In this document: in pieces, positions 1 through 12,445 of the stretch
Layout: every line of letters starts with the position of its first letter
Position numbering within the stretch: the first letter of the stretch is position 1
Program-made: the position numbers and the translations under genes
Virus record (IMG/VR): IMGVR_UViG_3300045988_104734
Location: 1-12,445 of that record
From: a virus
Strand: one strand, 5' to 3'
DNA length: 12,445 bases
The notes under the pieces: generated by a model
Seen by the model: the letters and a program-made list of their open reading frames with translations, nothing else
Told to the model about the DNA's origin: nothing
Database searches by the model: none

Positions 1-77
1 CACTCTGTACACTTTGCACAAATAGGAAGCCTCCCCTTTGTGCATATTGTACACATTGCACAAAAAGGGAGGCGGTT
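1..77. repeat. Left terminal inverted repeat (perfect 77 bp; imperfect similarity continues to about 111)
   Basis: Bases 1-77 are the exact reverse complement of 12369-12445. The first mismatch is at position 78 versus 12368. The ITR contains internal direct and inverted repeats. Confidence 0.97.
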
Positions 78-93
78 GCCAGATTGTACAAAT

Positions 94-111
94 TTGGTCA
101 GGTTGACATGC
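94..111. repeat. Subterminal conserved box TTGGTCAGGTTGACATGC (left copy)
   Basis: 17 of 18 bases match the reverse complement of 12320-12337, which lies outside the perfect ITR. The box contains TTGACA. It abuts the stop codon of the tail fibre gene at 112. Confidence 0.8.
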
Positions 112-765
112 TTATGCTGTGTAATAGGTCAGATCGAAAATTAACATACCCTGTGGAACAGTCGAGATCGTTCCAGACTCGACGCTGACTACATTATTCT
201 CGATCTTCGTCTTAATGCGAGTTGTCCCGCTAAGCAGCCCCCAGCCGAAAGCTGTTCCGACGACGCTGTGCGGGAGAGTGGCGACCGGTGTCCAATACTC
301 GGAGCTTTTGCTTGAAAGTGTGGCGTCGATGAAAAACGTAGCGGTATGTCCGGACACGATTGAATAGCACAGAGTGACATTTATTAAATGGTCGGATGGA
401 GTTACATTTGCCACGGTCGGAGTGAGCGAATTTTCAACCGCGATTCTCGCGTTTTCCGCTCTCACCGCATCCGCATTAGCGAGAGCAGCAGCGGCCGCGG
501 CCTCGGTCGCGTCCTTTTCAGCCTCCGCAGCACTGGTCGCCGCGTTCTCTTTCGCGGTGTTGGCCTCGCTCGCCGAAGACTGCGCGGCAATCGCGGCGGC
601 CTGCGCCTCATTGACTTTCTGCATGACCTGCTCAATGATGTCGGGCGTGAGCTGCTGCAATGCCTGAATAACCGCCGGGTCGATGCTCTTAATAATAGAG
701 ATGATCCAGTCGAGATTAATGTCGTGCAGATTAGTGTATGGGAAAAGATGATTAAAGATTGCCAT
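112..765 (-). CDS. Tail fibre / receptor-binding protein (217 aa)
   Basis: The N-terminus FPYTNLHDINLDWII matches the NLDWI-type anchor motif I recall from Firmicutes phage tail fibres. An Ala/Glu-rich predicted coiled coil follows, then a beta-rich C-terminal domain. It is the last gene of the structural module. AAAGGAG lies upstream of the ATG at 765. Confidence 0.6.
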   Translation of the reverse strand: MAIFNHLFPYTNLHDINLDWIISIIKSIDPAVIQALQQLTPDIIEQVMQKVNEAQAAAIAAQSSASEANTAKENAATSAAEAEKDATEAAAAAALANADAVRAENARIAVENSLTPTVANVTPSDHLINVTLCYSIVSGHTATFFIDATLSSKSSEYWTPVATLPHSVVGTAFGWGLLSGTTRIKTKIENNVVSVESGTISTVPQGMLIFDLTYYTA

Positions 766-1504
766 TTTTGCCTTTCTCCTTTTTGTAAATTTCGTTCACA
801 CGATTTTGTACAAGAGAGTAGAACCAAGCGCCGAGCTTTTCTTTCCGGTCGAGGCCGTTTGACCACTTTCCGTCGATCACGTCTCGCGCGATGTTCTCGA
901 TGTCGATCACCAGCTTTTCAGGCTCTGCGCTCGGCTCTTCGAGCTTAAAAAGGTTAATGTCGAAAATGAGATCGAGATCGAGGGGATCGCCGCGGTATTG
1001 ATGCATGACCGCCTCGCCGGTCAGATCGGGAAAATTAATTCCGTCGTTCCATCCCCACGCGGCCACCCAGCGCGGAAGCTCGTCCGCAAGGATTTTCGTG
1101 TCGAACCATGACTGCGACGCATAAACGCCAGAGAACAGGCCGCGCGCCCTCATGCAGCCGCAGAACTCGCGGCACATAAGCGTGATCGAGTCAGGGAATC
1201 CGTGTTTGCGCTTGAAATTGTCGGAGTCCTCCATGTCGAACCAGACGCCGAGAGGCGGGACTTTTCCGTTGAGAAACTTGATGCAAGCGCCCGCTTCGGC
1301 GGCCGCTTCCTTAACGGTCAATGCGTAGGAATACCAGTAAATGCCCCAAGGGATTCCGATCTTTTCAGCTTGCGCCACGAACTCATACGCGCAGCGGTCG
1401 ACAGTCTCCGAAAAACCGCCGCGGATGATGACGAACTCCGGGGAATGATCGGCGATCTTAAAGGATTTTCCTTGATGCTCGGAAATATCGATTCCTTTTA
1501 ACAT
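752..1504 (-). CDS. Endolysin: GH25 muramidase catalytic domain plus one C-terminal CW_7 (Cpl-7-type) cell-wall-binding repeat
   Basis: The N-terminus MLKGIDISEHQG is the GH25 signature, and an acidic FDMEDSD segment follows. The C-terminus IARDVIDGKWSNGLDRKEKLG...LVQNRVNEIY fits the CW_7 consensus. RBS GGAGG lies 7 nt upstream of the ATG at 1504. Confidence 0.9.
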   Translation of the reverse strand: MLKGIDISEHQGKSFKIADHSPEFVIIRGGFSETVDRCAYEFVAQAEKIGIPWGIYWYSYALTVKEAAAEAGACIKFLNGKVPPLGVWFDMEDSDNFKRKHGFPDSITLMCREFCGCMRARGLFSGVYASQSWFDTKILADELPRWVAAWGWNDGINFPDLTGEAVMHQYRGDPLDLDLIFDINLFKLEEPSAEPEKLVIDIENIARDVIDGKWSNGLDRKEKLGAWFYSLVQNRVNEIYKKEKGKNGNL

Positions 1505-1515
1505 GCTCTTTCCTC

Positions 1516-2064
1516 CTAATAAACCAGCAGACAGAAACGGCGCTGAAAGCTGTCGATGATAACGTCATACACGCAATAATCAACGATCTTTCGCTGCTCT
1601 TCGATCATCTGCTGCGATGTTGTGACGCCGATGTTGCCGCGAACGAGGCCGACGTGCTTGCTGCTCGATTTTCCGGAGCTGCTGCCGCCGCTCTCGCTGC
1701 CGTCAGAAGTCACAAGCTCTTGCGAGTTGTAACCGGCCTGTTTGCCGGTCGCAGTGCTTGTCGCCGTGCTGCTGCCCTCGCTGTCGTCCGTCCATTCCTC
1801 ATGTCGGTCGTAGTTAGAGATCGGGTCATATTCATAGTGGAGAGTCTTTTCAAGCTCCTCCCATTTGTCAACCTCGGCCTTCGACCAAGCGCCTATTGCC
1901 TCGCGCATAAATTCCGCGTTCGGGTACAGGATTTCGAGCTCCGCACATTCCATGAGCAGATTGTCGATAAGCGTCTGTTTATCCAGCGCGGCCGGGATTT
2001 TGAAGAAGTCGAAAAGGCCTTTGTTCGCTGTCCACAGTCCTAACAGGCTCATCGTTGCGCTCAT
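1516..2064 (-). CDS. Putative lower collar / head-tail adaptor (phi29 gp11-like), 182 aa from ATG 2064
   Basis: It sits immediately after the portal gene, as in phi29. LHYEYDPISNY and the C-terminal GNIGVTTSQQMIEE resemble remembered phi29 gp11 segments (LNYEYPYHP; IGTTQSAMYG). The start at 2064 was chosen because GGAGG lies 10 nt upstream. The ORF-track start at 2133 would overlap the portal gene by 155 nt. Confidence 0.5.
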   Translation of the reverse strand: MSATMSLLGLWTANKGLFDFFKIPAALDKQTLIDNLLMECAELEILYPNAEFMREAIGAWSKAEVDKWEELEKTLHYEYDPISNYDRHEEWTDDSEGSSTATSTATGKQAGYNSQELVTSDGSESGGSSSGKSSSKHVGLVRGNIGVTTSQQMIEEQRKIVDYCVYDVIIDSFQRRFCLLVY

Positions 2065-2941
2065 CGTTTTCATACCTCCAATCAACAGAAATTTTGAGAT
2101 CGGGGAACATTTTCCGGACGCGCTCGCAGTCATCCTGCAACTGTTCGAGCCACATTCCCGAGCGCGAGAACGTCTCTACGTTGTTTGCGTTAACCTCGTC
2201 TGTGGTCAACCGCTCGCGTTTGGTGATGTTAGCGTTTGGGATGCCGATCTCGGTACAGAACTGGTTTTCGAGCGCTCGCATATCGTCAAAGATTTTCGTT
2301 GCGATGTAGTTTTGCCCGACGTTCTGCGAAAATGTATACCAAGCGTTTTTACCGTCCGGCGCTTTAAGACGAGTGTCGAGAACGACCGCCGGATCGCCCT
2401 GCTGAATTTGATCGTAGAGCTTTTTGAACGTCTCGGCCGCTGCTTTGTTTCCGGCGGCGAACACGTAGGAAAGTTTGCTGTTCAACATGTTCATGCCCGC
2501 CGCCTCGCTTGCAATGGCGAGCTGGTCGGCGTAGTAGGAAACAAGGTCGCCTATACCCATCCAGTCAGGTGTGAGCCGGATAATCTCACAGTCAATGCCG
2601 ATAGTGAACGGATTTGAAATGTCCGGCAGGATAGGATTTGCGACAATGAACTGTGAGGGCTGCATAAAAACGTTGTAGCCGCTGACGCCTCCGAGCTGGG
2701 GAATAACGCCGAATTTCTTCGTCGGCACGATTCCGACATATCCCCAATAAAAGAGGCCGTAGAGGAAATAATTCTTTGCCCAATTGAGCGGCATTTTCCA
2801 GCGGAAAACCGACATTGCTTTCTGTAAAAGGTATCGCTCGAAAAAGCTGTGAAGCGCCGTGTTGCGAACGTGCACTGTCGATGGTGATGTCGAGCCGGAA
2901 ACGGCGTTAATTTGCCGGTAGGAATAGGGCGGATTTGTCAA
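1979..2941 (-). CDS. Portal (upper collar/connector) protein, phi29 gp10-like, about 320 aa
   Basis: EIGIPNANITKRERLTTDEVNANN...SRSG...ISVDWRYE closely parallels remembered phi29 gp10 [23 protein letters not shown]...ESSG...VKVKFRYD. The N-terminal PYSYRQINAV resembles NTYRSINEIQ. The likely start is TTG at 2941, which has GGAGG 9 nt upstream and overlaps the upstream TGA as TTGA. An alternative ATG lies at 3001, and the ORF track extends to 3070. Confidence 0.9.
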   Translation of the reverse strand: MTNPPYSYRQINAVSGSTSPSTVHVRNTALHSFFERYLLQKAMSVFRWKMPLNWAKNYFLYGLFYWGYVGIVPTKKFGVIPQLGGVSGYNVFMQPSQFIVANPILPDISNPFTIGIDCEIIRLTPDWMGIGDLVSYYADQLAIASEAAGMNMLNSKLSYVFAAGNKAAAETFKKLYDQIQQGDPAVVLDTRLKAPDGKNAWYTFSQNVGQNYIATKIFDDMRALENQFCTEIGIPNANITKRERLTTDEVNANNVETFSRSGMWLEQLQDDCERVRKMFPDLKISVDWRYENDERNDEPVRTVDSEQRPFRLLQNPGRAG

Positions 2942-3480
2942 AGTCTGCCACCTCCAAATTTGAAAAGTAACCACGCGGGGATTTTGAAAAACGCTTCCCA
3001 TGCTCGCGCATAGGAAATTCTTGTGTTCTGCGTCGCCGGGCCGGGATCGGCCGGGTGCTCGTAGAACCACAACCAGTATTTTGTGAGAACGTCAACCGGC
3101 AGACTGGACACAAGGAACTCTGAGAGAGTGATCGGCGGGTCAATGCCGAGCTCGGCGTTTCTGAACCATTGCAGATCGTTTACTGCCTCGAAAGAAATTC
3201 GCTGCATCTGGGCGTTGCCGTTGTTTTCCCAGCCGTCGCCCCACCATTCGGAGTATTTTGTGTATGGCGTCCATTGTGTCAGGCCGTAACCTCCGGCATA
3301 CGGTGTTAAATTCTCCCATATGCCGGGATTGATGCCCGATTCTGCCTGAATATTTCCGAGCATGGCGAAAATTGCGTTGCTGCTCCAACCGATGGACAGG
3401 CCGCGTCCGCGAAAGACGCGCGCGTTGTTCTGCATTTCGGTTGTTGATAGGTATCGGTTTCCGGCGATCCAATCACTCAT
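2938..3480 (-). CDS. Tail-associated peptidoglycan hydrolase (phage tail lysozyme, phi29 gp13 N-terminal-domain-like)
   Basis: LGNIQAESGINPG...GGYGLTQWT is the GNxxxES...G(L/I)xQW signature of the phage tail lysozyme family. The gene is embedded between the tail knob and portal genes. Its start overlaps the tail knob stop by 8 nt. Confidence 0.85.
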   Translation of the reverse strand: MSDWIAGNRYLSTTEMQNNARVFRGRGLSIGWSSNAIFAMLGNIQAESGINPGIWENLTPYAGGYGLTQWTPYTKYSEWWGDGWENNGNAQMQRISFEAVNDLQWFRNAELGIDPPITLSEFLVSSLPVDVLTKYWLWFYEHPADPGPATQNTRISYARAWEAFFKIPAWLLFKFGGGRL

Positions 3481-4906
3481 AATACGCCCCGTTCATCAAC
3501 ATTCTGTTGATCGAATCGCGCTCCGCGTCGGTGCGGCCTCCGGAGAACTGCGGCGAGGCGATCTCGACATAGCCGGGAACGTCAGAAATTTTCCGCACCT
3601 CACAAAGCGGGCGGCCTATTTCGTCGTTGTTCTGCGCGGCGATCCGCGAGAACGTGCCGGTGAGACGCACAGGGAAATAGCCTGCGGTGTATGTCCCGTT
3701 TGATCCGAGAGATTGCAGCGGAGATACTTTCGATAGCATATAAGCTCCGACGCCTTTTGCGACGGTCATAAAGGTATTTTCGAGACGGTCAATAACATTC
3801 CCTTGCGGATTGTCGAACTTTACACCAAGCAATGAACTAACGCCACTTTCAAGAGCTTCGGCACCCGCGGCAATAAGGCCCATTGAGGAGTTAGCGATTT
3901 GTACAGGCACGCCGATTTGAGAGCGCAGCACGTTACAATATCCGAACGTTGTTGTGAGAGCGTTAGCGCCGATACGTAACGATCCCTCGCCTGTGATGCA
4001 GTCAACTGTCCATTGAAAATCGAGGAGATCGCAATCAACCAAAGCGGCGGCCGGGACAGTCACGGCCCCGAACGGTTGAAAATCAAGATAATACTGTGAG
4101 TACGGCTCGGAAAGTAGCCAATAACCGCGCGTCAATGCGTCCGGGTGTTTGGGAACTTTGATTGTCAGCGTGCCGCCGGATCGAACCGTCTGTGATAGTT
4201 TTTTCGCGCTCGCCGAGACCTCCCACCATCCGATGGGGATCGTCGTCACGTCGCCGCTCGTTGGCGGCTGTACCGGAATCCAGATACACGAGGAAATGTA
4301 GCTGAACGGATTAAACAGGACTTTTGTCAACTGCTCGGAAATCTCGGCAATGTCTCCGAGATAGTCAGTTGACGAAAGGAGCTTTGCCGAGAACGCGCGA
4401 AATTGCGCATCCGTCATAACGTAGTAGGACACGGCCCCGACGCTGTTTGCGTCGTTATTGATGACTCCCACCACGTAATAACCATTTGCAATGCTCGATG
4501 CAAAGGGGTTGTTTGTGTTCGTTTCGACCGCATACGTAACACCCACCTCCGATACCGCCGCGGGATCGGGAATGCGGCCATTATGCGCAGTGCTCGACCG
4601 GTTAATCATGCATGTCATTTCTCCAATCTCCGAGCGGTATGTGCCGAGCACGTCAACGGCGAGATCGACCTCCCAGAGTCCGCGCAGAAATCGCCAATTC
4701 TCCACGAAATAAAAGCGGTCAAACTCGACGATACGCGCATACCCAAGATTTTGCGGATTGATCGGAGGCTTTAATAGAATCGTGGGCCGGAGAAGACCAG
4801 AGCCGTCCAACAGCTCACAGGAAAATTCTATGTCTGCAAGATCGCCGGGAATTTTGGTCGAATTTGTTCTTTTCGGGAACGTGTAAAATTTAACCGTATA
4901 GGACAT
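3473..4906 (-). CDS. Tail knob / distal tube protein (phi29 gp9-like), 477 aa
   Basis: It follows the capsid gene, as gp9 follows gp8 in phi29. The N-terminal block YARIVEFDRFYFVENWRF...LAVDVLGTY parallels remembered gp9 YIMFQNADYGNKWFYAFV...FEIDVLQTW. RBS GGAGG lies 5 nt upstream of the ATG at 4906. Confidence 0.75.
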   Translation of the reverse strand: MSYTVKFYTFPKRTNSTKIPGDLADIEFSCELLDGSGLLRPTILLKPPINPQNLGYARIVEFDRFYFVENWRFLRGLWEVDLAVDVLGTYRSEIGEMTCMINRSSTAHNGRIPDPAAVSEVGVTYAVETNTNNPFASSIANGYYVVGVINNDANSVGAVSYYVMTDAQFRAFSAKLLSSTDYLGDIAEISEQLTKVLFNPFSYISSCIWIPVQPPTSGDVTTIPIGWWEVSASAKKLSQTVRSGGTLTIKVPKHPDALTRGYWLLSEPYSQYYLDFQPFGAVTVPAAALVDCDLLDFQWTVDCITGEGSLRIGANALTTTFGYCNVLRSQIGVPVQIANSSMGLIAAGAEALESGVSSLLGVKFDNPQGNVIDRLENTFMTVAKGVGAYMLSKVSPLQSLGSNGTYTAGYFPVRLTGTFSRIAAQNNDEIGRPLCEVRKISDVPGYVEIASPQFSGGRTDAERDSINRMLMNGAYYE

Positions 4907-4917
4907 GACAACCTCCT

Positions 4918-4960
4918 ATAAAAGATCGCGCGGCGGGCATATCGGTCATCCGCCGCGCGA
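4918..4960 (-). terminator. Intrinsic terminator or attenuator downstream of the major capsid gene
   Basis: A perfect 11-bp GC-rich stem (4926-4936 pairs with 4950-4960) encloses a 13-nt loop. On the minus strand it is followed by UCUUUUAU. It lies in the 64-nt gap between the capsid stop and the tail knob start. Confidence 0.7.
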
Positions 4961-4970
4961 CCCATGAGCA

Positions 4971-6146
4971 CTAATCGAGCGTGAAAACGACCGCGTTCTC
5001 CGTGAAGTCGTTCCAGTAACGATCCTGGAAGTTCCAGAACGTATTAGCGTAACGACCGCGGGGATTCCAAATCGAGCCGACGTCGTAGTTGCAGACGGAA
5101 ATTCCGGCCGCCTCTTCGTCCATGAGCACCGCGAACACGTTCGCAACGTCCACCTTTTCCGCCTCCGTCGTGATCGTGCCGTCGGCCGCCAGATAGGACG
5201 GCAGCGCGGAAACAGCGTCCGGCGTCTTGATCGACTGCCAGAAGTTGACGATCTCGTTGGACGCGTCGCGGATATAATTCTCGTGATAGGTGTCCGCGAG
5301 CACGCGCGCCTCCGTCTCGAATTTCGCGGGCGCGTACATGAACACTTTCTGTCGGGCCATCGGCGTATGACGGATGAAATTCCCGGCCGTGATGTTCGTG
5401 TGGAAATCGATGCTTCGCTCGGTCATCAGAGACGAAATAGAGGCAATGCGCGCATATACCCACTTCATAAACGCGGGGAATACGTCAGGCGCATGAACGG
5501 TCGTTGCGGTATACTTGCCGCCGGTCGCGGCGTTGTACTCTGTCAGAAGATGGATATTCTGCTGCGCGTTCGCCTGTTTCGCGATACCGGCAATGAGGTT
5601 TGCCATAGTCGCGCGGGCCGTCGTTTCATGATCCTGTTCGATCTGGTCGGACACATTCTGCATCTGTCCGGCGATGAACGATGCAAATTCATCCGGCGAC
5701 GTGAACGCCGCGTCGAGCTGATCGCGGAAAACAGTGGTCTTGCGCTCATAGTCGGTGCGCCCATAGAAATTCGTCTGGATGATTTTGGGCTTGCTCACGT
5801 TGAACGGATCGACGCTCGCGGCGTCTGCCGGAGCGAGACCCGCGTCGTCGACGGGATCGCTGTCCAGATAGTTGATCTTTCGGACGTGGTTTCCCCACTT
5901 CCGAGAATCCACGAACAGGCCGCCGAACTTGCGGGTATACGGCCGCACGGAAAAGATCGTGCGCGCGAGCACCTGCGAAATCGCGTTCATGGCGGGCTCG
6001 TAGCCGGTTTTGAGCAGCGTCTGCCCGACACTGACGAATTCGCCAGTGTTGATCGGAGACTGGACGCTATGTCCGGTCGCCTGATGCAGCATTTCGGCGA
6101 GAGTCGCCGAGAGCTGCACAAATTCAAGATTGTTCACATTGGGCAT
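4971..6146 (-). CDS. Major capsid protein (phi29 gp8-like HK97-fold), 391 aa
   Basis: The C-terminus SIWNPRGRYANTFWNF...FTENAVVF parallels remembered phi29 gp8 TVRNPRGLYWNYYYHV...FANAVAF. The gene sits directly after the scaffold candidate with a TAATG stop/start overlap. There is no Ig-like C-terminal extension. Confidence 0.85.
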   Translation of the reverse strand: MPNVNNLEFVQLSATLAEMLHQATGHSVQSPINTGEFVSVGQTLLKTGYEPAMNAISQVLARTIFSVRPYTRKFGGLFVDSRKWGNHVRKINYLDSDPVDDAGLAPADAASVDPFNVSKPKIIQTNFYGRTDYERKTTVFRDQLDAAFTSPDEFASFIAGQMQNVSDQIEQDHETTARATMANLIAGIAKQANAQQNIHLLTEYNAATGGKYTATTVHAPDVFPAFMKWVYARIASISSLMTERSIDFHTNITAGNFIRHTPMARQKVFMYAPAKFETEARVLADTYHENYIRDASNEIVNFWQSIKTPDAVSALPSYLAADGTITTEAEKVDVANVFAVLMDEEAAGISVCNYDVGSIWNPRGRYANTFWNFQDRYWNDFTENAVVFTLD

Positions 6147-6592
6147 TATTTTTTCTCCCCTCCATTAATGAGATTTGTGAGATATGCCTCCGCGATCTCT
6201 CCCGGAGACTGCGGCGGCGTTTCGCGCGAGATGGTCAGAATGTTGTGCTGCTGCACCGCGCCCAGCAGCTCAGCGATCTTCTGATTGATCGCTGCGAGCT
6301 CTGGATTTGCCGGAGCAGCCGGAGCAGCCGGAGCAGCCGGAGCAGCCGGAGCAGCCGGAACAGCCGGAGCAGCCGGAGCAGCCGGGGCTGTGGGAGCAGC
6401 CGGAGCAGCCGGAGCAGCCGGAGCCGCCGGAGCAGCCGGAGCAGCCGGAGCCGCCGGAGCAGCCGGAGCCGCCGGAGCAGCCGCCGGAGCAGCCGGAGCA
6501 GCCGGAGCAGCCGGGTCCGGTGTCAAAAGCCGCTCGATGAATGCCGCGGAAAATCCCGCGTCAAGCAGTTTGTTTACATCTTCGAGATTCAT
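6146..6592 (-). CDS. Putative scaffolding protein with central (PAA)n linker (148 aa from ATG 6592; the ORF-track GTG is at 6601)
   Basis: It lies immediately upstream of the capsid gene and is translationally coupled to it, like phi29 gp7. It has helical N- and C-terminal segments. The central region holds about 23 Pro-Ala-Ala units. Function is inferred from position only. Confidence 0.45.
   Translation of the reverse strand: MNLEDVNKLLDAGFSAAFIERLLTPDPAAPAAPAAPAAAPAAPAAPAAPAAPAAPAAPAAPAAPAAPTAPAAPAAPAVPAAPAAPAAPAAPAAPANPELAAINQKIAELLGAVQQHNILTISRETPPQSPGEIAEAYLTNLINGGEKK
6309..6515. repeat. Tandem 9-bp repeat (GCCGGAGCA)n, about 23 units, in-frame within the scaffold candidate
   Basis: The repeat is directly visible. 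Units are mostly identical, with a few single-base variants (gccggaaca, a ggggctgtggga segment, gccgccgga) and one 12-nt unit. It encodes PAAPAAPAA on the minus strand. Confidence 0.97.
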
Positions 6593-6597
6593 GTTGT

Positions 6598-6951
6598 TCA
6601 CTCTTCCTTTTCGTGATTTCCGTGATTGCTGTCAAAGAATTTGCCGAGAATGTCCGCCGCTGCGGGGGAAAGTTTGCGGATGTTCTCCAGGATGCTGCCG
6701 ATCTCCATCAATACGAGATAGGAAGCCGCGACCATAACCAGATCAACCGGGAGCTCGATATTGACGAAAGGCGCGAACTTGTCGCACATCACCGCCAGGC
6801 CGAGAGCTGCCAGCTCGCCCACTTTGTTAAACAGTCCCTCGCGCATGATCGCGCTTTTGAACTGCTTGTTTTTGAGAGCCGCGAGCAGACCTGTGAGAAG
6901 ATCGCCGAGAATGAACGCAAGAACGATGCAGCAGACCAGTGTCACATTCAT
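6598..6951 (-). CDS. Holin (phage_holin_4 / TcdE-like family), 117 aa
   Basis: It has three hydrophobic segments (VTLVCCIVLAFILGDLLTGLL; ELAALGLAVM; LVMVAASYLVLMEIGSIL) and a charged C-terminal tail. The LGDxxTG N-terminal motif is typical of this holin family. A strong RBS, GAGGAGGTG, lies 7 nt upstream of the ATG at 6951. Confidence 0.85.
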   Translation of the reverse strand: MNVTLVCCIVLAFILGDLLTGLLAALKNKQFKSAIMREGLFNKVGELAALGLAVMCDKFAPFVNIELPVDLVMVAASYLVLMEIGSILENIRKLSPAAADILGKFFDSNHGNHEKEE

Positions 6952-6979
6952 TTAACCACCTCCTCACCGGTCGAATTTC

Positions 6980-7008
6980 AACATACCAAAACATAATAAG
7001 AAAAGGAA
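6980..7008 (-). promoter_or_regulatory. Candidate late promoter with extended -10 (TTCCTT, 17-nt spacer, TGgTATGTT)
   Basis: On the minus strand the -35-like TTCCTT is at 7008-7003, the TG extension at 6988-6987 and the -10 TATGTT at 6985-6980. This places it about 30 nt upstream of the holin start. The match to consensus is weak. Confidence 0.25.
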
Positions 7009-7080
7009 CACAAGTGTCTGCCCCGACCGAGAGCATGGACGCGCTTTCCGGGCGCTGGTCTTGTCCCTTGTGTTCCTCTT
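6989..7080 (-). other. Long compound hairpin plus U-tract in the ATPase-holin spacer (terminator or structured RNA)
   Basis: On the minus-strand RNA, AAGAGGAACACAAG (7080-7067) pairs with CUUGUGUUCCUUUU (7014-7001) for 14 bp including one G-U. The stem encloses 52 nt with further GGAC/GUCC, GACC/GGUC and GCGC/GCGC pairings. UUCUUAUUAUGUUUU follows. Confidence 0.6.
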
Positions 7081-7109
7081 CATTATCATATCACCTACCG
7101 CTACTGTTG

Positions 7110-8129
7110 TCAAGTGGCAAGTTTCCGAAAGAATGCCTTTGCCGCCAAATTCGAGAACGAAAGCCGCTCGTCAATGAAAGCGAGCCAGAAAATTTTAAGA
7201 TACCGCGCGCGGAAACTCGCCGCCGCCGTCTCGCCGTTGCCCAGATTGACCGGGTGGCCGAACGAATGTTCCGTGATATGAAACTCTGCGGTACCTTTCA
7301 CGCCGCAGAACGTATAACCGCCGACTCTGACGATAGGCTTTAATTGCTTGAGATCGCGCGAACGAATATTCGATACGTCGGTCATCACAAATTCATTGTC
7401 AAGCGCCATTGCCGAAAAATCGCCCTCTCCGGCAACACGATAGAGCGCTGTGTCCCTCTTCTTCTGCGAGATCGGGGATTTTGTCAGGGAAATAACACAG
7501 ATTCCGCGCGCGTCGTCCGTCCACATTTCCCGGCCGGAAGCAAAGGCTCTCCGCACATTGTCCGCGATTCCGAGCGTGAGAAAGACAGGGTTCGCAAGAT
7601 CGCCGCTGTTTGACAGACAGATCATTTTCAGAGGTTCGCGGCCGTCAAGCTCTCGGTTTCGGTTCATTGTCTCGTATGCGTTCAGAAATGCGAGGCCCTC
7701 ATTTCGGATTTGCGTTTCGTGAGGTTCGGGGATGAACTCGTCATAAATGCAGTATTTCGCCGCCGAAACGTCAAAGCCTCTCACGTTGGCGATGGCCGTT
7801 AACGCTAACATGATGCAGCGCAGATCGCCGCGCGCTCCCTCCGTGCTCTCCCAAACGCCGACAGCATTTCGAGAAATGCCGTTTTGCTCAAACTCAATTC
7901 CGCGATCTCGACAGAATGGAACGAACGGCGACAGCTCTTTTCGGCTGATCGCGTCAAGCTGCGTCTGTCTCCGTCGCATGAAAACAAACTCGCCGCCGCG
8001 TTCCCAAGCCTCCGAGATCGCGCCGTATGTCTTGCCGGTCGCTCGGCCTCCTACGACCATTATAAACGGATAGGACAAATCGAAAATTTCTTTAAAATCG
8101 GGATAGCCGTCTTTTTTAAAAAGTTTCAT
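7110..8129 (-). CDS. DNA encapsidation (packaging) ATPase, phi29 gp16-like, 339 aa
   Basis: Walker A is VVGGRATGKTYG, compared with remembered gp16 VIGARGIGKSY. Walker B is CIYDEF. The size matches gp16 (about 330 aa). RBS GGAGG lies upstream of the ATG at 8129. Confidence 0.9.
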   Translation of the reverse strand: MKLFKKDGYPDFKEIFDLSYPFIMVVGGRATGKTYGAISEAWERGGEFVFMRRRQTQLDAISRKELSPFVPFCRDRGIEFEQNGISRNAVGVWESTEGARGDLRCIMLALTAIANVRGFDVSAAKYCIYDEFIPEPHETQIRNEGLAFLNAYETMNRNRELDGREPLKMICLSNSGDLANPVFLTLGIADNVRRAFASGREMWTDDARGICVISLTKSPISQKKRDTALYRVAGEGDFSAMALDNEFVMTDVSNIRSRDLKQLKPIVRVGGYTFCGVKGTAEFHITEHSFGHPVNLGNGETAAASFRARYLKIFWLAFIDERLSFSNLAAKAFFRKLAT

Positions 8130-8140
8130 GTTTCCTCCTA

Positions 8141-8169
8141 TAAGAAAAGCGCCGGATTTCTCCGGCGCT
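8141..8169 (-). terminator. Intrinsic terminator at the replication-module / packaging-module boundary
   Basis: A perfect 9-bp stem AGCGCCGGA/TCCGGCGCT (8148-8156 pairs with 8161-8169) has a 4-nt loop. On the minus strand UUUUCUUAU follows. It fills most of the 48-nt gap between the 120-aa ORF stop and the ATPase start. Confidence 0.8.
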
Positions 8170-8177
8170 CTGCGCTG

Positions 8178-8540
8178 TCAGCGGACGACGCTGCATGTGA
8201 TAAAGTCGCGGCCGGTCTTGCCGCTCACGCTGCGAACAACGGCCACACGATCAAGCGTCTTTCCCATCTGGGTAAACAGCTCAACCATCTTGCGGAAGTC
8301 GCGGATAAAGTAGGGGCTGTTCGTCACGTAAACGCGATCATCCTTGCCGAGAATGGAGAGGTTTTCGCGGACTTCGCCGGTCTTCTCGGAAACGTCGTCG
8401 TAAAAGACGGCGGTCTCGATCTCGATACTCTCAACCTCCACAGTCTTCCTGATCGGTACGGCGCTGGAATCGGAGGTCAGCAGCCAAACCTCTTCAGGGG
8501 AAAGCTCTTTGTTCGCGGGGTAAATTTCGTTGATTTTCAT
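8178..8540 (-). CDS. Hypothetical protein (120 aa), possibly an ssDNA-binding protein of the replication module
   Basis: The ORF lies directly after the polymerase. AAAGGA lies 9 nt upstream of the ATG at 8540; the ORF-track start at 8564 is a TTG. The alternating beta-like pattern and size resemble small phage SSBs such as phi29 p5, but I recognise no diagnostic motif. Confidence 0.6.
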   Translation of the reverse strand: MKINEIYPANKELSPEEVWLLTSDSSAVPIRKTVEVESIEIETAVFYDDVSEKTGEVRENLSILGKDDRVYVTNSPYFIRDFRKMVELFTQMGKTLDRVAVVRSVSGKTGRDFITCSVVR

Positions 8541-8560
8541 GTCGGGGCATCCTTTCTTTT

Positions 8561-10624
8561 TCAAAATGTCCGAGATTTCCTTTTCGTCCCGGTACGTATA
8601 GTATAGCGCAATGTTCGCACAATGTCAACGGCAAAATGAGGATTTCCCAAAATAAGCGAATAGTCACCGGCAAGCCCCAATTCGTATGTCGTAGGTACAA
8701 GGCATGTGTTTTTCGTCACTTTCCACACTTTTCCATTTTTCGCCGTGTAATTCCAATCTCCGGCGATATGGTCATTATGAACGGCGGCGAGCTTTCCGGA
8801 ATCGGAAAAAACAAAACCCTCTCGAAATGCTGCAAGGCCGCCTTTCGCCGCAAGCTCGGCGCTTCCCGCTTTTTTAGGTACTCCCGCAATTGTTATTTCG
8901 AGATCGCCTTTCTGATCGATAGCCGCGTATTTTTTCGCGCCCATAGTGACAAACTGCTCGGCGGTTTCCTCGCCCTCGAACACTCCCATAAAATGCTCGA
9001 CGCCGGAAGGGTCGGTCGCGTACGCACCGCTCTGCATATCGTCGGCGATGCACTGATCGTTAAACAATGTAAAATCAAGATCGCCTACATATTTAACACA
9101 GTCAGTGTCGCAGTAGACAAACTGACTTCCCGCAATATCGATTCCCGTCTGCAATGCGTCTCTCGCCCATGCGGTCACCCAGACACCCCAAGCGTAGGAG
9201 AGAAAAGCGCTTTTGTTCGCTCGCAGAAGCTGATCCTCCGGCCGCGCGTCTGTCAGTGCGAATTGCCGGTCAGACTTCGGGCAGTATTTCCACTCGGCCC
9301 GCACGGGATCGGTTGCCATCATGCCATAAATCGCATTTAACTTTCGCTTTGACTTCGCATATAGAACCTCTTGACCTTTTACATTTTTCAGCTCGGTCTT
9401 TTTTCGATAATAGTCAAGGCAACAATCAATAATCGGCTGTGGAAGCGCGCCATATTGGGCATATCGTAGATCGCCAATCTCGACACTTTCCCAAGCATAT
9501 TGTCGCTCTACGATCTTCCAATCTACATCGGTCAATGTCGTTTCGAGCGAGGCGGCCCGCAGAATGCGGCCGTTATCCTTTATCGGCCGCGAAATGTCCC
9601 TGCATTTTGAATGCGCGAGGTACGGGCAGCCGGTCAAAGGGTCGCGCAGCTCGATATTGATGAACCTCGCCCGAAAAAGACATGCTCTGTGATGCTTGTC
9701 AATCAGCCGCCGCAGCGTCTTTTCGTCACTGGTGAGGCTTTCGCAAAACGGCGACATTGGGAAAGGTCGGTTGCAAATGACGTCTGGATAAGAGCTCGAC
9801 CGGTCGCAGGATTTAACGTCGACGAGAATCATGTTTGCATAAAGCCTGTTTGCGTGAGTATTGCCGCCTCGGAACGCCTCTCGGAGCAGGACATAATCCT
9901 CCCAACCGGGGGCGAGATAGCGATACGATTTCCCAGCTTTCCGCAGAGCGGCGCGCACATCGCGCCGGACGTAGCCGGTGGACGTGAGCGGCAACGTGTG
10001 CAGCGTGTCGCCGTCGTGCCGCATCTCTGCACGAATCGCTTCCACCAAACCAAGAACATCGTGAACTGCATAGGCAATCTCACTTTCGGAGAGCTCGGTG
10101 TCCGGCAGACGAAAAACCGAATAATCGAAGTCATGCAGCTTTGCGTGTTCGACGCGCATTTCCTTTAGAAAAGCGTCAAGCGAAAGGTTACTGTGAATAT
10201 AGGAACAACGAAATTCGACAAAGCCGCACATGTCAGCCTTTGCCACCTTTCGCGGCTGGAGGGCGAATACATCATCAGGGCCGAAATCAAAAACGCCAGA
10301 AAGAAATTGGAACTCGTAGGAAAGATTGTGAACAAACACCACCAGCCATGTTTTTTCCTGCATAGCGGCCTTTGCAATAGCTATGCAGTCTTTGAACTCT
10401 TCCCACGTCCGGCCGACGATCACATCGCTCTCAAAAGCCCATTGCCACACATACATTATCGATTCCTCCGTGTCGGGTATCCGGGAAGTCTCGATGTCGA
10501 AAGCGCTCACCACGTCGACATACTCGCGCTTGACCTTTACATTTCCCGGATGCTCGACACGTTCAACTGTCACATGATCGACAATTGCCTGTTTCGCGGC
10601 GCGCGTCCCTGCCGCATAAATCAT
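8561..10624 (-). CDS. Protein-primed family-B DNA polymerase (687 aa from ATG 10624; the ORF-track GTG at 10657 gives 698 aa)
   Basis: Exo I is FDIET, Exo II is HNLSYEF and Exo III is YAVHDVLG. Motif A is DRSSSYPD (Dx2SxYP), motif B is KRKLNAIYG (Kx3NxxYG), motif C is YCDTDC and the KxY motif is GAKKYA. GGAGGAAAGGA lies upstream of the ATG at 10624, which sits 2 nt after the upstream TAA. Confidence 0.95.
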   Translation of the reverse strand: MIYAAGTRAAKQAIVDHVTVERVEHPGNVKVKREYVDVVSAFDIETSRIPDTEESIMYVWQWAFESDVIVGRTWEEFKDCIAIAKAAMQEKTWLVVFVHNLSYEFQFLSGVFDFGPDDVFALQPRKVAKADMCGFVEFRCSYIHSNLSLDAFLKEMRVEHAKLHDFDYSVFRLPDTELSESEIAYAVHDVLGLVEAIRAEMRHDGDTLHTLPLTSTGYVRRDVRAALRKAGKSYRYLAPGWEDYVLLREAFRGGNTHANRLYANMILVDVKSCDRSSSYPDVICNRPFPMSPFCESLTSDEKTLRRLIDKHHRACLFRARFINIELRDPLTGCPYLAHSKCRDISRPIKDNGRILRAASLETTLTDVDWKIVERQYAWESVEIGDLRYAQYGALPQPIIDCCLDYYRKKTELKNVKGQEVLYAKSKRKLNAIYGMMATDPVRAEWKYCPKSDRQFALTDARPEDQLLRANKSAFLSYAWGVWVTAWARDALQTGIDIAGSQFVYCDTDCVKYVGDLDFTLFNDQCIADDMQSGAYATDPSGVEHFMGVFEGEETAEQFVTMGAKKYAAIDQKGDLEITIAGVPKKAGSAELAAKGGLAAFREGFVFSDSGKLAAVHNDHIAGDWNYTAKNGKVWKVTKNTCLVPTTYELGLAGDYSLILGNPHFAVDIVRTLRYTIRTGTKRKSRTF

Positions 10625-10626
10625 GG

Positions 10627-11226
10627 TTATTCGTCCTTTCCTCCGGTCTCTACCCACAAATAGAACGCATCTTCGAGATCTTCTTGTGTGCTGTACTTTC
10701 CGGAATTGTCGTCGAAAAAATCCGCGATTTCCGGCGAGCCAATGCGAAATCCGCGCGTCGTTTCTCGCGCAAACTGCATAAAGCGGTCGAAATCTGGGTA
10801 TGTTCCCTCGTCGACGAAATCTCCGGCCGCCTCGCGTGCTTTCCTGACATTACGCTCGAATTTTCGGCGAGCGCCGTAAACGGTACTCTCTTCTTTTGTG
10901 AGAAACGACCGCAGCCCGGCCAAATTTCCAGCGAGAGCGGTTGACGATTTGCCTATTTCTTTCAGCGTTGGAAAGCCTGTCGAAACCGCATCCTTGACGT
11001 TCTCCAAACGCTTAAGCAGCGGATCGGCTTTCAAGCGAACAATGCGCTTTTGCGCGATATTGCGGAGGCGGGTGTACTCTCGGCGCAGGTCTTTTTCGCT
11101 GATTTCTTCCTTGCCCAGCTTGACCAAAAGAGCATAGGGTGTGTACTGCTCGACCGGAAGATTAAACTTTACCGGCTTTGGTTTCGGCGGCAGACGGCCG
11201 CCGGTCTTTGAAAATTTACTCGACAT
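10627..11226 (-). CDS. Candidate terminal protein (199 aa from ATG 11226)
   Basis: It lies immediately upstream of the protein-primed polymerase and is coupled to it, as phi29 gene 3 is to gene 2. It has a basic N-terminal half (KPKPVK, REYTRLRNIAQKRIVRLK) and an acidic C-terminal domain (DFFDDNSGKYSTQEDLED). There is loose resemblance to remembered phi29 TP segments (EYARLVKNTKAKIARTK; EEFDSEGNT). The 258-aa ORF-track version overlaps the upstream gene and has an implausible Cys/Arg/Trp-rich leader. Confidence 0.55.
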   Translation of the reverse strand: MSSKFSKTGGRLPPKPKPVKFNLPVEQYTPYALLVKLGKEEISEKDLRREYTRLRNIAQKRIVRLKADPLLKRLENVKDAVSTGFPTLKEIGKSSTALAGNLAGLRSFLTKEESTVYGARRKFERNVRKAREAAGDFVDEGTYPDFDRFMQFARETTRGFRIGSPEIADFFDDNSGKYSTQEDLEDAFYLWVETGGKDE

Positions 11227-11485
11227 TGAAATGCACGACCTCCCAATTCTCGCAAAGAATGCGTTTCGCTGACAATCTGATCTGTCGCTTGGGCACCATC
11301 TCCATATTTCGCAGCAGGACGAGGCGGCCGTCTTCGGTCTTCTTCGCTGCGTAATAGTTGCCGTTTTCTCGCCATGTTGCACAATATGCCGGAGCGTCCG
11401 CAAGGAATTTCATCATTTCCTGTAAAGTCTCCGGAGAGAGCGGCGCGCGCTCTCTCCGGTATCCTCGATATTTCGTGCTGTCCAT
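11216..11485 (-). CDS. Hypothetical early protein (89 aa from ATG 11485; alternative ATG at 11497)
   Basis: The ORF ends 11 nt into the terminal-protein candidate. A GGTGGTG Shine-Dalgarno-like sequence precedes the ATG at 11485. The upstream part of the 160-aa track ORF is Cys/Arg-rich and overlaps the preceding gene. I recognise no family. Confidence 0.55.
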   Translation of the reverse strand: MDSTKYRGYRRERAPLSPETLQEMMKFLADAPAYCATWRENGNYYAAKKTEDGRLVLLRNMEMVPKRQIRLSAKRILCENWEVVHFNVE

Positions 11486-11618
11486 ATTCACCACCATCCA
11501 AAAATTTTTCCGAGAACCACAGCCCGCAGAGCGTCGGCAATGCATAGAAGGGCATTCACAATCGCGCTCTCCGCGCAGTCGTCCATGACAAACAGCCGCA
11601 ACATGAAATAGATAACGC

Positions 11619-11843
11619 TCATAAGCAGAACCTCTCAACATTCTCGAAAAATCTGCGATCTCCGAGAAAGGTGTCAAGATCGACCAGAACCTCGCCATTC
11701 GGCCCGTTGATAATGATCGATAGATCGCCGGTTTGCAGCTCTTCGTAAACTGCCCGACCGAAACATCTGTTTCCGGTCTCAGCGCATAAAGTCATCCGAG
11801 CCTTGCCGTATTTCCGCACTCTCTTAATCGTACGTTTCGACAT
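11619..11843 (-). CDS. Hypothetical early protein (74 aa from ATG 11843; alternative ATG at 11864)
   Basis: AAAGGAG lies 11 nt upstream of the ATG at 11843. The N-terminus is basic (KRTIKRVRKYGKAR), so it could bind nucleic acid. I recognise no family. Confidence 0.55.
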   Translation of the reverse strand: MSKRTIKRVRKYGKARMTLCAETGNRCFGRAVYEELQTGDLSIIINGPNGEVLVDLDTFLGDRRFFENVERFCL

Positions 11844-11864
11844 GTTTTGTCCAACTCCTTTCAT

Positions 11865-11918
11865 TTAGCCTTTGCCTGCGAGATCGAGCCCGCGGTTGTC
11901 GATGATTTCAAATTTCAT
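11865..11918 (-). CDS. Possible 17-codon micro-ORF (MKFEIIDNRGLDLAGKG)
   Basis: AAAGGAA lies 8 nt upstream of the ATG at 11918. The stop TAA directly abuts the ATG at 11864 of the next ORF (TAAATG). It is too short to judge from composition. Confidence 0.25.
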   Translation of the reverse strand: MKFEIIDNRGLDLAGKG

Positions 11919-11966
11919 TTCAATTTTCCTTTCTGGGCGATTTGGCCGTCGCCCTCGGCTTGTCTC

Positions 11967-12254
11967 TCACTTTCTGCTTGACGCTCTCGCGTTCTGGCGA
12001 ACCGCCGTCACATCGCTATATTCGCCGCTTTCGATGATGTTGAGCAACGCTGCGATCTTCGCCTCGGCTTTGTTGCGCGCCTCAATCTTCTCGGTGCTGC
12101 ACCAAAGGCGAAGATTGCCAGTTTCATTTTCTTTCCCTCTAAAAGAGGTGTGCACAGTGAAAAGCATTTTCCCATTCCTTTCTGCATGCCGCTCGTCGTG
12201 GCGATCTTCGAGCACTGGCAGAACCTGCCTCGACCACCGGATCGCCTGTCTCAT
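11967..12254 (-). CDS. Hypothetical first early protein (95 aa from ATG 12254; alternative 66-aa form from ATG 12167 with AAAGGAA RBS)
   Basis: This is the first ORF inside the right end. The ATG at 12254 lies 6 nt downstream of a perfect TATAAT, which implies a possible leaderless start. Third-codon-position G/C bias continues through the N-terminal extension. I recognise no family. Confidence 0.5.
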   Translation of the reverse strand: MRQAIRWSRQVLPVLEDRHDERHAERNGKMLFTVHTSFRGKENETGNLRLWCSTEKIEARNKAEAKIAALLNIIESGEYSDVTAVRQNARASSRK

Positions 12255-12260
12255 AATGCA

Positions 12261-12307
12261 ATTATACGACAAGCACCACGTGCAATTGTGAACAAATTGT
12301 TAACAAT
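12261..12307 (-). promoter_or_regulatory. Candidate early promoter (-10 TATAAT at 12266-12261) with upstream tandem operator-like palindromes
   Basis: Reading the minus strand gives ATTGTTAACAAT (a 12-bp perfect palindrome, 12307-12296), then TTGTTCACAAT (12295-12285), then CAATTG, CACGTG and finally TATAAT. No good -35 hexamer lies at 16-18 nt spacing. Confidence 0.45.
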
Positions 12308-12319
12308 GTAGCGCAGCCT

Positions 12320-12337
12320 GCACGTCAACCTGACCAA
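12320..12337. repeat. Subterminal conserved box (right copy; GCACGTCAACCTGACCAA on the plus strand)
   Basis: Its reverse complement, TTGGTCAGGTTGACGTGC, matches left-end 94-111 at 17 of 18 positions. The right arm carries an extra 13 nt (cggctgtgcatgt in inward orientation) between the box and the ITR. Confidence 0.8.
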
Positions 12338-12368
12338 ACATGCACAGCCGAATTTGTGCAATCTGACA

Positions 12369-12445
12369 AACCGCCTCCCTTTTTGTGCAATGTGTACAAT
12401 ATGCACAAAGGGGAGGCTTCCTATTTGTGCAAAGTGTACAGAGTG
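12369..12445. repeat. Right terminal inverted repeat (perfect 77 bp)
   Basis: It is the exact reverse complement of 1-77. Confidence 0.97.

Follow-up and report, generated by a model that had tools for sequence, protein, structure and literature searches.

Knowledge of protein-primed phage origins comes almost entirely from phi29, which has a 6-bp inverted terminal repeat (ITR), a protein, p6, that binds every 24 bp with low sequence specificity, and boxes for the host regulator Spo0A near its ends and early promoters. In adenovirus, the ITR contains an auxiliary origin in which NFI and Oct-1 sites lie next to the core origin. Longer ITRs, of tens to hundreds of base pairs, occur in Cp-1, PRD1, Bam35 and Clostridium phage HM2 (~170 bp in the last), and to our knowledge no internal motif grammar has been described for any of them. 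Here we examine the ends of IMG/VR virus record IMGVR_UViG_3300045988_104734, positions 1 to 12,445, a window of 12,445 bp that is referred to below as W and that is the complete linear genome of a small phi29-like (protein-primed) phage of the human gut. The 77-bp perfect ITR of W holds an array of operator-like 17-bp dyads and a short TCCCC box. We put at roughly 0.5 the probability that the ends of W combine a terminal core, a clade-wide TCCCC box and a lineage-variable dyad array serving a widely shared, probably host, protein.

By analogy, the closest functional counterpart of this arrangement is the adenovirus auxiliary origin, and among phages the nearest precedent is the use of sites for the host regulator Spo0A at the phi29 ends. 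Like adenovirus, W has a protein-primed linear genome with a symmetric, factor-type site inside the ITR, ~25–50 bp from the end and adjoining the internal side of the terminal core, and the binder proposed for W would likewise be cellular. It differs in being a bacterial virus with an unrelated site sequence present in several copies, and stimulation of initiation in W is suggested by analogy only. With phi29, W shares its virus group by gene content, ends that would combine an origin with early-promoter control, and, through Spo0A, a precedent for a host regulator. The ends of W nevertheless carry discrete 17-bp dyads that are not 0A boxes, and a p6 homologue, the sole testable mark of a p6-type origin, was not detected in W (no match for any W early open reading frame, ORF). 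The p6-like origin organizer invoked in an earlier reading of the sequence (the original prediction) is a weak analogy, since the W sites are discrete and symmetric. The same reading contrasted the 77-bp ITR with the far shorter one of phi29, which is true yet unremarkable, as the ITRs of relatives measure from 60 to at least 400 bp. No motif is shared with Cp-1, PRD1, Bam35 or HM2. The ITR of HM2 is unrelated, with neither the dyad nor a TCCCC at nt 30–45, and the cultured relative AD70P3 is deposited without ITRs. Telomeres of Streptomyces linear replicons also pair protein-primed ends with palindromes that can fold in single-stranded DNA, but these palindromes are structurally defined elements that function in a 3′ overhang as the ends are patched, whereas the W element is conserved in sequence and its site is also found at ordinary promoters.

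The starting point for our analysis was a set of five quasi-palindromic 8-mers recognized near the left end in the original prediction, all of which are present where they had been placed. Comparison with relatives identifies these 8-mers as half-sites of a 17-bp dyad, TTGYRCAA-N-TTGYRCAA, which is equivalent to TTGTGCA-N3-TGCACAA. Exact copies of TTGYRCAA number eight in W (1.18 expected), and six of these fall within the two terminal ~93 nt. Scanning W for TTGTGCA-N3-TGCACAA with up to two mismatches returned six matches, all inside the ITRs (three per ITR), compared with 0.035 expected genome-wide and a maximum of one in 200 shuffles. The three dyads, designated D0, D1 and D2 (Table 1), are centered at nt 13, 46 and 55, with the self-complementary TGTACA common to D1 and D2. 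The center of D1 matches that of the single dyad present in L047 (nt 46) and L214 (nt 47), where L-numbers are locus labels of relatives and contigs. Past the perfect ITR, one further half-site is found on each side (TTGTACAA on the left, TTGCACAA on the right), and the right end also bears a degenerate dyad, GTGCA-GGC-TGCGC, in place of which L504 has a good one.

Conservation of the motifs in relatives, a check named before the analysis, was assessed in close-clade genomes found through homologues of the polymerase, the lysin and the early ORFan product p89 (79–94% polymerase and 66–92% lysin identity to W). Ten ends were aligned, drawn from W, L500, L501, L504, L505, L507, L007 (both ends), L011 and L004; Logan contigs of relatives end at the ITR boundary and contributed none. 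Across these ends, identity to W was 91% in the half-sites (248/273), versus 65% in the N3 spacers and 66% in other columns, a contrast that is descriptive rather than a formal test because the aligned ends are related sequences. The corresponding value for TCCCC was 83%. The expectation that the 8-mers would be held more strongly than their surroundings was thus borne out. D0 is retained in six genomes (W, L500, L501, L504, L507 and L007) with spacers that differ (CTT, CCT or ATA), and the distance between the D0 and D1 centers is constant at 33 bp in the close clade. W, L004, L500, L501 and L507 contain the 9 nt from which the second dyad arises, and L504, L505, L011 and L007 lack them.

The dyad extends well beyond this clade. 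L047 and L214, whose polymerases are 27–28% identical to that of W, carry (T)CCCCTTTGTGCA-N3-TGCACAAA at both ends, centered at nt 46–47. L047 was the one true match from loose DNA-pattern scans of IMG/VR, which otherwise gave almost only chance matches, and an unbiased IMG/VR scan for the perfect dyad (16 specified bases) returned at least 120 loci. Among the matches listed, many lie near the ends of 12–17-kb contigs encoding phi29-like polymerases 22–46% identical to that of W. These listed matches include L588, with a dyad at both ends, as well as L604, L535, L537, L567, L601, L511 and L563, a 16-kb dyad-bearing group (L522, L527 and L529), and L622 and L557, where a half-site is followed by TCCCC(C) and then by three dyads 31 nt apart. 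The dyad is therefore found near the ends of more than 10 other phi29-like lineages, and its center lies 46–52 nt from the end in W, L047, L214, L588, L604, L622 and L535. It was not seen at the ends of 80 loci of the clade with 47–51% polymerase identity, nor at the ends of the nearest relatives of L047 (43% identity), and INPHARED yielded no further ITR relatives. Present in far lineages and absent from intermediate ones, the dyad is thus patchily distributed relative to the polymerase phylogeny. Dyad-free controls carry other repeated ITR words, either of the GGACA/ATTTGT types or TGAACAAATTGTTAACA / TTTGTTCA, the latter being the same word pair as at the W early promoter. The gut and phi29-like phage papers that we searched do not discuss ITR motifs and describe neither the dyad nor the TCCCC box.

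The same site is also found on bacterial chromosomes. Dyads with a CCCC flank are located upstream of TTGACA/TATAAT-type promoters in contigs of metagenome-assembled genomes from Oscillospiraceae, Lachnospiraceae and other Clostridia, and larger-phage contigs from metagenomes and IMG/VR have further copies, frequently in arrays 30–60 nt upstream of TTGACA-17-TATAAT promoters. Rfam searches of the promoter-associated loci matched no family. At one locus, L426, two dyads bracket the promoter between the gene for a LacI-family regulator (PF00356 and PF00532) and that for an ABC-transporter binding protein (PF13416), the latter lying past the dyads; other sites have no such neighbor. A single metagenome scan was dominated by one bacterial hairpin locus and otherwise gave only L251, L259 and several promoter-associated arrays. 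Given that an identical site is found in many phage lineages with no lineage-specific shared protein, as well as at Clostridia promoters, the putative binder is most likely a host or otherwise widely shared protein.

This conclusion bears directly on the original prediction, in which the array was a binding platform for one of the small basic early ORFans. The platform itself accords with our results, as the motifs are conserved and continue toward the early promoter, and it is the choice of binder that fits poorly. We judge it unlikely that a small phage-encoded early protein, whether a p6-like organizer or a p4-like regulator (p89, p81 or the 66/95-aa product), binds the array. Several small early ORFans are indeed encoded beside it, and phi29 is known to use small phage proteins at its ends. 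Among these ORFans, p89, whose gene immediately precedes that of the terminal protein, is alone in being conserved across the close clade, where every member has it. However, p89 is limited to that clade (48 clusters, all at least 62% identical), whereas the dyad is not so restricted and is identical in lineages with 22–46% polymerase identity that share no small protein. In phmmer comparisons between W, L047 and L214, only core proteins were common and no small protein was shared; L214 has a single small ORF before its terminal-protein gene, and this ORF is unrelated. Likewise, when all ORFs of at least 40 aa in 19 dyad-bearing and 20 dyad-free genomes were clustered with blastp, no family proved specific to the dyad-bearing set. 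The W early ORFans gave no DNA-binding match in Pfam or PHROGs, and the AlphaFold model of p89 was poor (mean predicted local distance difference test score, pLDDT, of 62) with no Foldseek match. Finally, a phage ORFan cannot explain the chromosomal sites.

With respect to known regulators, the sole literature match for the motif was PhaR of alpha-proteobacteria (TTGTGCA-N1-TGCACAA), which was rejected because its spacing and host group are wrong. The recognition sites of Rex, CRP/FNR, TnrA, AraR, sigma-54 and NtrC, and DnaA boxes, presumably do not fit either, as none is known to agree with the dyad in both spacing and sequence; the best match is 8/9 to TTWTNCACA.

Related inverted sequences were encountered in three further settings. 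The hairpin locus that dominated the metagenome scan (L221 and ~75 others, all from one chromosomal locus of a common human-gut bacterium) is a 34-nt perfect hairpin, gatcCCCCTTTGTGCAGGATAAYGGCTGCACAAAGGGGgatc, with the arms of the dyad but a 10-nt spacer, and is probably a terminator. In high-GC soil-type contigs (L234, L310, L313, L332, L238, L309 and L250), CCCCTTTGTGCA-NN-TGCACAAAGGGG is found within similar G+C-rich flanks, and may represent a repeated element or a PhaR-type short-spacing site. Two unrelated metagenome contigs, L297 (385–939) and L241 (1309–1884), have dyad arrays and a strong promoter before an ORF of 184–191 aa that has no Pfam match, and these contigs may share a dyad-controlled first gene.

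The internal architecture of the ITR raises the question of whether its palindromes act as folded DNA. The 16-bp direct repeat reported in the original prediction at 7–22 (GTACACTTTGCACAAA) and 49–64 (GTACACATTGCACAAA) is present, with 15/16 positions matching, and it widens to 24 nt when 6–29 is compared with 48–71 (88%). The inverted repeat described there is also present, with its first arm (CCTCCCCTTTGTGCA) at 30–44 as proposed, but the second arm (TGCACAAAAAGGGAGG) occupies 57–72 rather than 58–73 and the loop is 12 nt rather than 13. Not noted in the original prediction is that the perfect ITR contains three copies of one ~24-nt module, namely A (6–29, forward), B (30–53, inverted) and C (48–71, forward). 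Because module B is an inverted copy of A and C, the order is A-forward/B-inverted/C-forward and two mutually exclusive hairpins are possible, with predicted energies of −15.2 kcal/mol for B:C (z −2.75) and −18.3 kcal/mol for A:B on the other strand (z −4.2).

On this basis, the array could act through single-stranded DNA structure, with hairpins in the displaced strand or cruciforms contributing to origin opening, to protection or positioning of the 3′ end, or to a switch between A:B and B:C. The predicted stabilities are in keeping with such a role, as are the perfect 14-bp stem of L047 (z −6.6) and the palindromes seen in other ITR families (L013, L353, L386 and L403). Within the close clade, the hairpin loop ranges from 3 to 12 nt and the outer GGGAGG/CCTCCC arm shows partial covariation in two genomes: the C30:G72 pair of W becomes T:A in L500, with a C·A intermediate in L501, and L004 has CTTCC/GGAA. 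We nonetheless regard a purely structural role as distinctly unlikely. In each half, the inner 8 bp do not vary between lineages or between phage and chromosomal contexts, with a free spacer and no drift accompanied by compensation, whereas the outer CCCC/GGGG pairing is often absent (L214, where z is only −1.0, L251 and most promoter-associated sites) and the GGGAGG/CCTCCC arm is unpaired in L214, L251 and the chromosomal sites. Invariant inner arms together with outer pairing that is frequently missing fit sequence recognition rather than a hairpin. Moreover, a dyad at a chromosomal promoter has no reason to be single-stranded, and tandem dyad arrays such as those of L622 and L558 suit protein binding better than they suit a single fold.

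The CCTCCCC sequence that forms the left arm of the 30–44 hairpin contains a TCCCC box, a separate and more general element than the dyad. Read on the inward strand, TCCCC lies 32 nt from the end in W and L047, 33 in L214 and 31 in L353, and at 37, 40, 41 and 45 nt in the L363 type, L497, the L434 type and L366, respectively. It is found at nt 31–45 in 8/14 distinct ITR families, compared with a genome-wide rate of 1 per 1620 nt per strand, and further families (L622, L557, L535 and L522) have it at nt 25–33. The gap between box and dyad varies from 5 to ~120 nt in L622, L535 and L522, which indicates that the two elements are independent. The near-fixed offset of TCCCC from the physical end suggests an end-related function, which may be replication or packaging.

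Taken together, these observations favor ends of W that are composed of three parts. Outermost would be a ~30-bp terminal core, presumably read by the terminal protein and polymerase, followed by the TCCCC box at nt 32–36, whose distance from the end is nearly constant among many gut phi29-like ITRs that are otherwise unrelated. The third part would be the 17-bp operator-like dyads, three of them in the perfect ITR with one or two half-sites and a degenerate dyad continuing toward the early promoter. These dyads are the predicted sites of a dimeric, sequence-specific DNA-binding protein, and such a protein bound at nt 5–63 and at the weaker sites could help to open or organize the origin as an auxiliary factor for protein-primed initiation, a role that NFI and Oct-1 have in adenovirus. 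The same bound protein could gate both early transcription and replication, much like Spo0A at the ends of phi29. A more specific proposal is that many gut protein-primed lineages independently retained or gained, within their ITRs, the operator of a single Clostridia transcription factor, which would serve as an auxiliary origin and early-promoter factor, while TCCCC is a separate clade-wide origin or packaging signal read by conserved phage machinery. We advance this version tentatively and consider it somewhat unlikely in its entirety.

Several points weigh against a host-protein array at the ends of W. Perfect chromosomal sites are scarce, with 12 in a GTDB scan and about half of these in Bacillota, and no known transcription-factor motif matched the dyad in our literature searches. 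Host inference through lysin homologues gave no organism, and sequence clustering would miss a phage protein that had diverged but kept its fold. The arm changes that covary in L500 and L004 are equally consistent with a hairpin, and the ITR dyads of W are at least ~125 nt upstream of TATAAT, a long way for direct control of the promoter. With regard to the TCCCC box, the binomial tail of 1.4e-12 applies to a window chosen after seeing the data.

What is new in these ends is a sequence-defined ITR grammar (terminal core, TCCCC box and dyad array) common to dozens of uncultured gut phages. It renders two questions testable, namely how the ends of these abundant small phages are recognized and whether a host regulator gates their replication or early transcription. 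If the more specific proposal of a single Clostridia transcription factor is true, the dyad array would be a bacterial counterpart of the adenovirus NFI/Oct-1 sites and would tie phage replication to a host physiological signal. The dyad could in addition serve as a host-linked marker for grouping phages and as bait for its binding protein.

In terms of transcription, the dyads might instead serve the early promoter alone, as operator or activator sites upstream of it, and the left-end copy would then be carried passively through ITR homogenization. Support for this comes from dyads placed 30–60 nt upstream of strong TTGACA-17-TATAAT promoters in L563, L620, L215, L297, L241 and L430, and from the way in which the W array runs on to the early promoter region. 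At W itself, however, the three best dyads are 125–175 nt from the −10 element and sit in the perfectly homogenized ITR, and it is the promoter-proximal copies that are degenerate. The dyad center is furthermore fixed 46–52 nt from the physical end in several unrelated lineages, which suggests an end-related constraint. We therefore see an exclusively transcriptional role as rather unlikely, while noting that it is compatible with the favored host-protein reading and not exclusive of it.

The early promoter region has its own motifs. Related TTGT..ACAA dyads had been anticipated there in the original prediction, and two TTGT-NN-ACAA dyads are in fact located at 12286–12295 and 12297–12306 (W total of 3 versus 0.12 expected). 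They make up the pair TTGTTAACAA/TTGTTCACAA, which is conserved in L011, L504 and L507. The TATAAT downstream of this pair is without a canonical −35 element at 16–18 nt, and a consensus promoter scan identified no full canonical sigma-70 promoter on the coding strand at the right end. The words TTGTTAACAA and TTTGTTCA(C)A of W are also building blocks of the L434-type clade ITR (nt 22–82 of L434/L435), where they lie beside its TCCCC box, and they recur three times in an unrelated 23-kb viral contig (L194, 8131–9195), each time followed by a G+C hairpin.

Finally, a G+C-containing hairpin downstream of the last gene could in principle be an intrinsic terminator of the leftward late transcript that has been duplicated at the right end by the ITR. 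This reading is highly improbable and was rejected because a terminator scan of 1–111 found nothing on either strand. In addition, the stems of W, L047 and L214 are not followed by a T-run, so that the combination of a G+C-rich stem and a T-run is not seen.

Table 1. Positions of terminal elements and of selected genes in the 12,445-bp genome W.
Feature	Position	Strand	Remarks
Left perfect ITR arm	1–77		100% complementary to 12369–12445
Dyad D0, cTGTACA-CTT-TGCACAA	5–21	+	Mirror 12425–12441; 2 mismatches
CCTCCCC with TCCCC box at 32–36	30–36	+	Mirror 12410–12416
Dyad D1, TTGTGCA-TAT-TGTACAc	38–54	+	Mirror 12392–12408
Dyad D2, TTGTACA-CAT-TGCACAA	47–63	+	Mirror 12383–12399
GGGAGG	67–72	+	Complementary to the CCTCCC arm; outer portion of the B:C hairpin
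Left imperfect continuation	78–111		Half-site pair TTGTACAA at 84–91; conserved block TTTGGTCAGGTTGAC; TTGACA at 103–108
Last gene before the left ITR	112–765	−	
Family-B polymerase	8561–10657	−	Next after the terminal-protein ORF
TATAAT	12261–12266	−	Likely −10 of the early promoter; conserved in L004, L007, L011, L504 and L507
Second motif pair, TTGTTAACAA + TTGTTCACAA	12286–12306	−	Upstream of the early −10 element
Right imperfect continuation	12320–12368		14 nt of this stretch missing at the left end
TTGACG	12323–12328	−	
Inverted half-site TGTGCA within CTGTGCAT	12340–12347	−	
Hairpin	12341–12360		Within the right imperfect continuation
Half-site TTGCACAA	12354–12361	−	
Right perfect ITR arm	12369–12445		Mirror of 1–77

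Beyond its perfect arms, the ITR continues imperfectly, reaching ~nt 111 at the left and ~nt 126 as counted from the right end; the two continuations differ by a 14-nt indel. On the left, this continuation is based on the 85% match between 85–111 and 12320–12346. An independent ENA contig, L005, has the same terminal base as W, and the imperfect continuation cannot be an assembly artifact. Within it, the block TTTGGTCAGGTTGAC(A/G) is conserved at both ends (94–108 versus 12323–12338), and the left-end TTGACA points into the antisense of the last gene, without a good −10 element. In the IMG/VR contig L368 (nt 1–47), the phage sequence still has a Nextera transposase adapter, TCGTCGGCAGCGTCAGATGTGTATAAGAGACAG, attached at both termini, which inflates the apparent ITR of that contig.

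On the basis of its gene content and ITRs, W is grouped with the phi29-like protein-primed phages. As in phi29-like podophages, it has a linear genome with inverted terminal repeats and encodes a family-B protein-primed DNA polymerase, together with a Gp16-type ATPase, a phi29-type major capsid protein, a Gp10 connector and a phi29-type single-stranded DNA-binding protein (SSB). W proteins match PF05894, PF25622, PF05352 and PF17427. The polymerase scores 24.8 bits against PF03175, slightly below the 25.8 cut-off, and its homologues carry PF03175; tblastn with this polymerase recovered annotated DNA polymerases of Amedibacillus, Salmonella (Astrithrvirus), Clostridium and Bacillus phages. The cultured relatives (Amedibacillus, Clostridium and Salmonella Astrithrvirus phages) have 33–36% polymerase identity to W, and the closest database records are unannotated human-fecal contigs. 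Every gene lies on the − strand. Read from the right, several small early ORFs precede the 199-aa putative terminal protein and the polymerase, followed by the SSB, the Gp16 packaging ATPase, a holin, an (Ala-Ala-Pro)n protein, the capsid protein, a 477-aa protein, a tail lysozyme, the connector, a GH25+CW_7 lysin and a 217-aa tail-fiber-like protein. The 199-aa ORF has no Pfam or PHROGs match, and its assignment as putative terminal protein draws on its conserved position directly upstream of the polymerase gene. No packaging RNA (pRNA) or other Rfam family was detected in W at E≤1, despite the phi29-type ATPase and connector; packaging pRNAs diverge fast.

Additional features were noted within the coding regions. 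A 9-nt tandem repeat, (GCCGGAGCA)n, spans 6273–6563 inside an ORF on the − strand (6146–6601) and encodes ~25 Ala-Ala-Pro units in a 151-aa protein just upstream of the capsid gene. Orthologues of this protein range from 106 to 156 aa in relatives, and the repeat is therefore probably length-polymorphic. In the 5′ part of the polymerase gene there is an imperfect 37-nt inverted repeat (10469–10561) that is 73% complementary with a 19-nt gap. The first ORF of the genome (95 aa, 11967–12254, − strand) would start 7 nt past the TATAAT without a ribosome-binding site, and it was not seen in those clade members for which the early region was examined. Translation from an internal start behind AAAGGAA would give 66 aa instead, and it is doubtful whether this ORF is real and where it truly begins. 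Within the close clade, it is the early region that varies. Close relatives differ in accessory genes, of which one, preceding the lysin gene, encodes a Dam-like methyltransferase (PF05869) and another is a PAPS-reductase-like early gene of 226–246 aa, with the accessory-gene loci at 9567–9992 in L500/L501, 555–1295 in L504, 648–1388 in L505 and 162–842 in L009.

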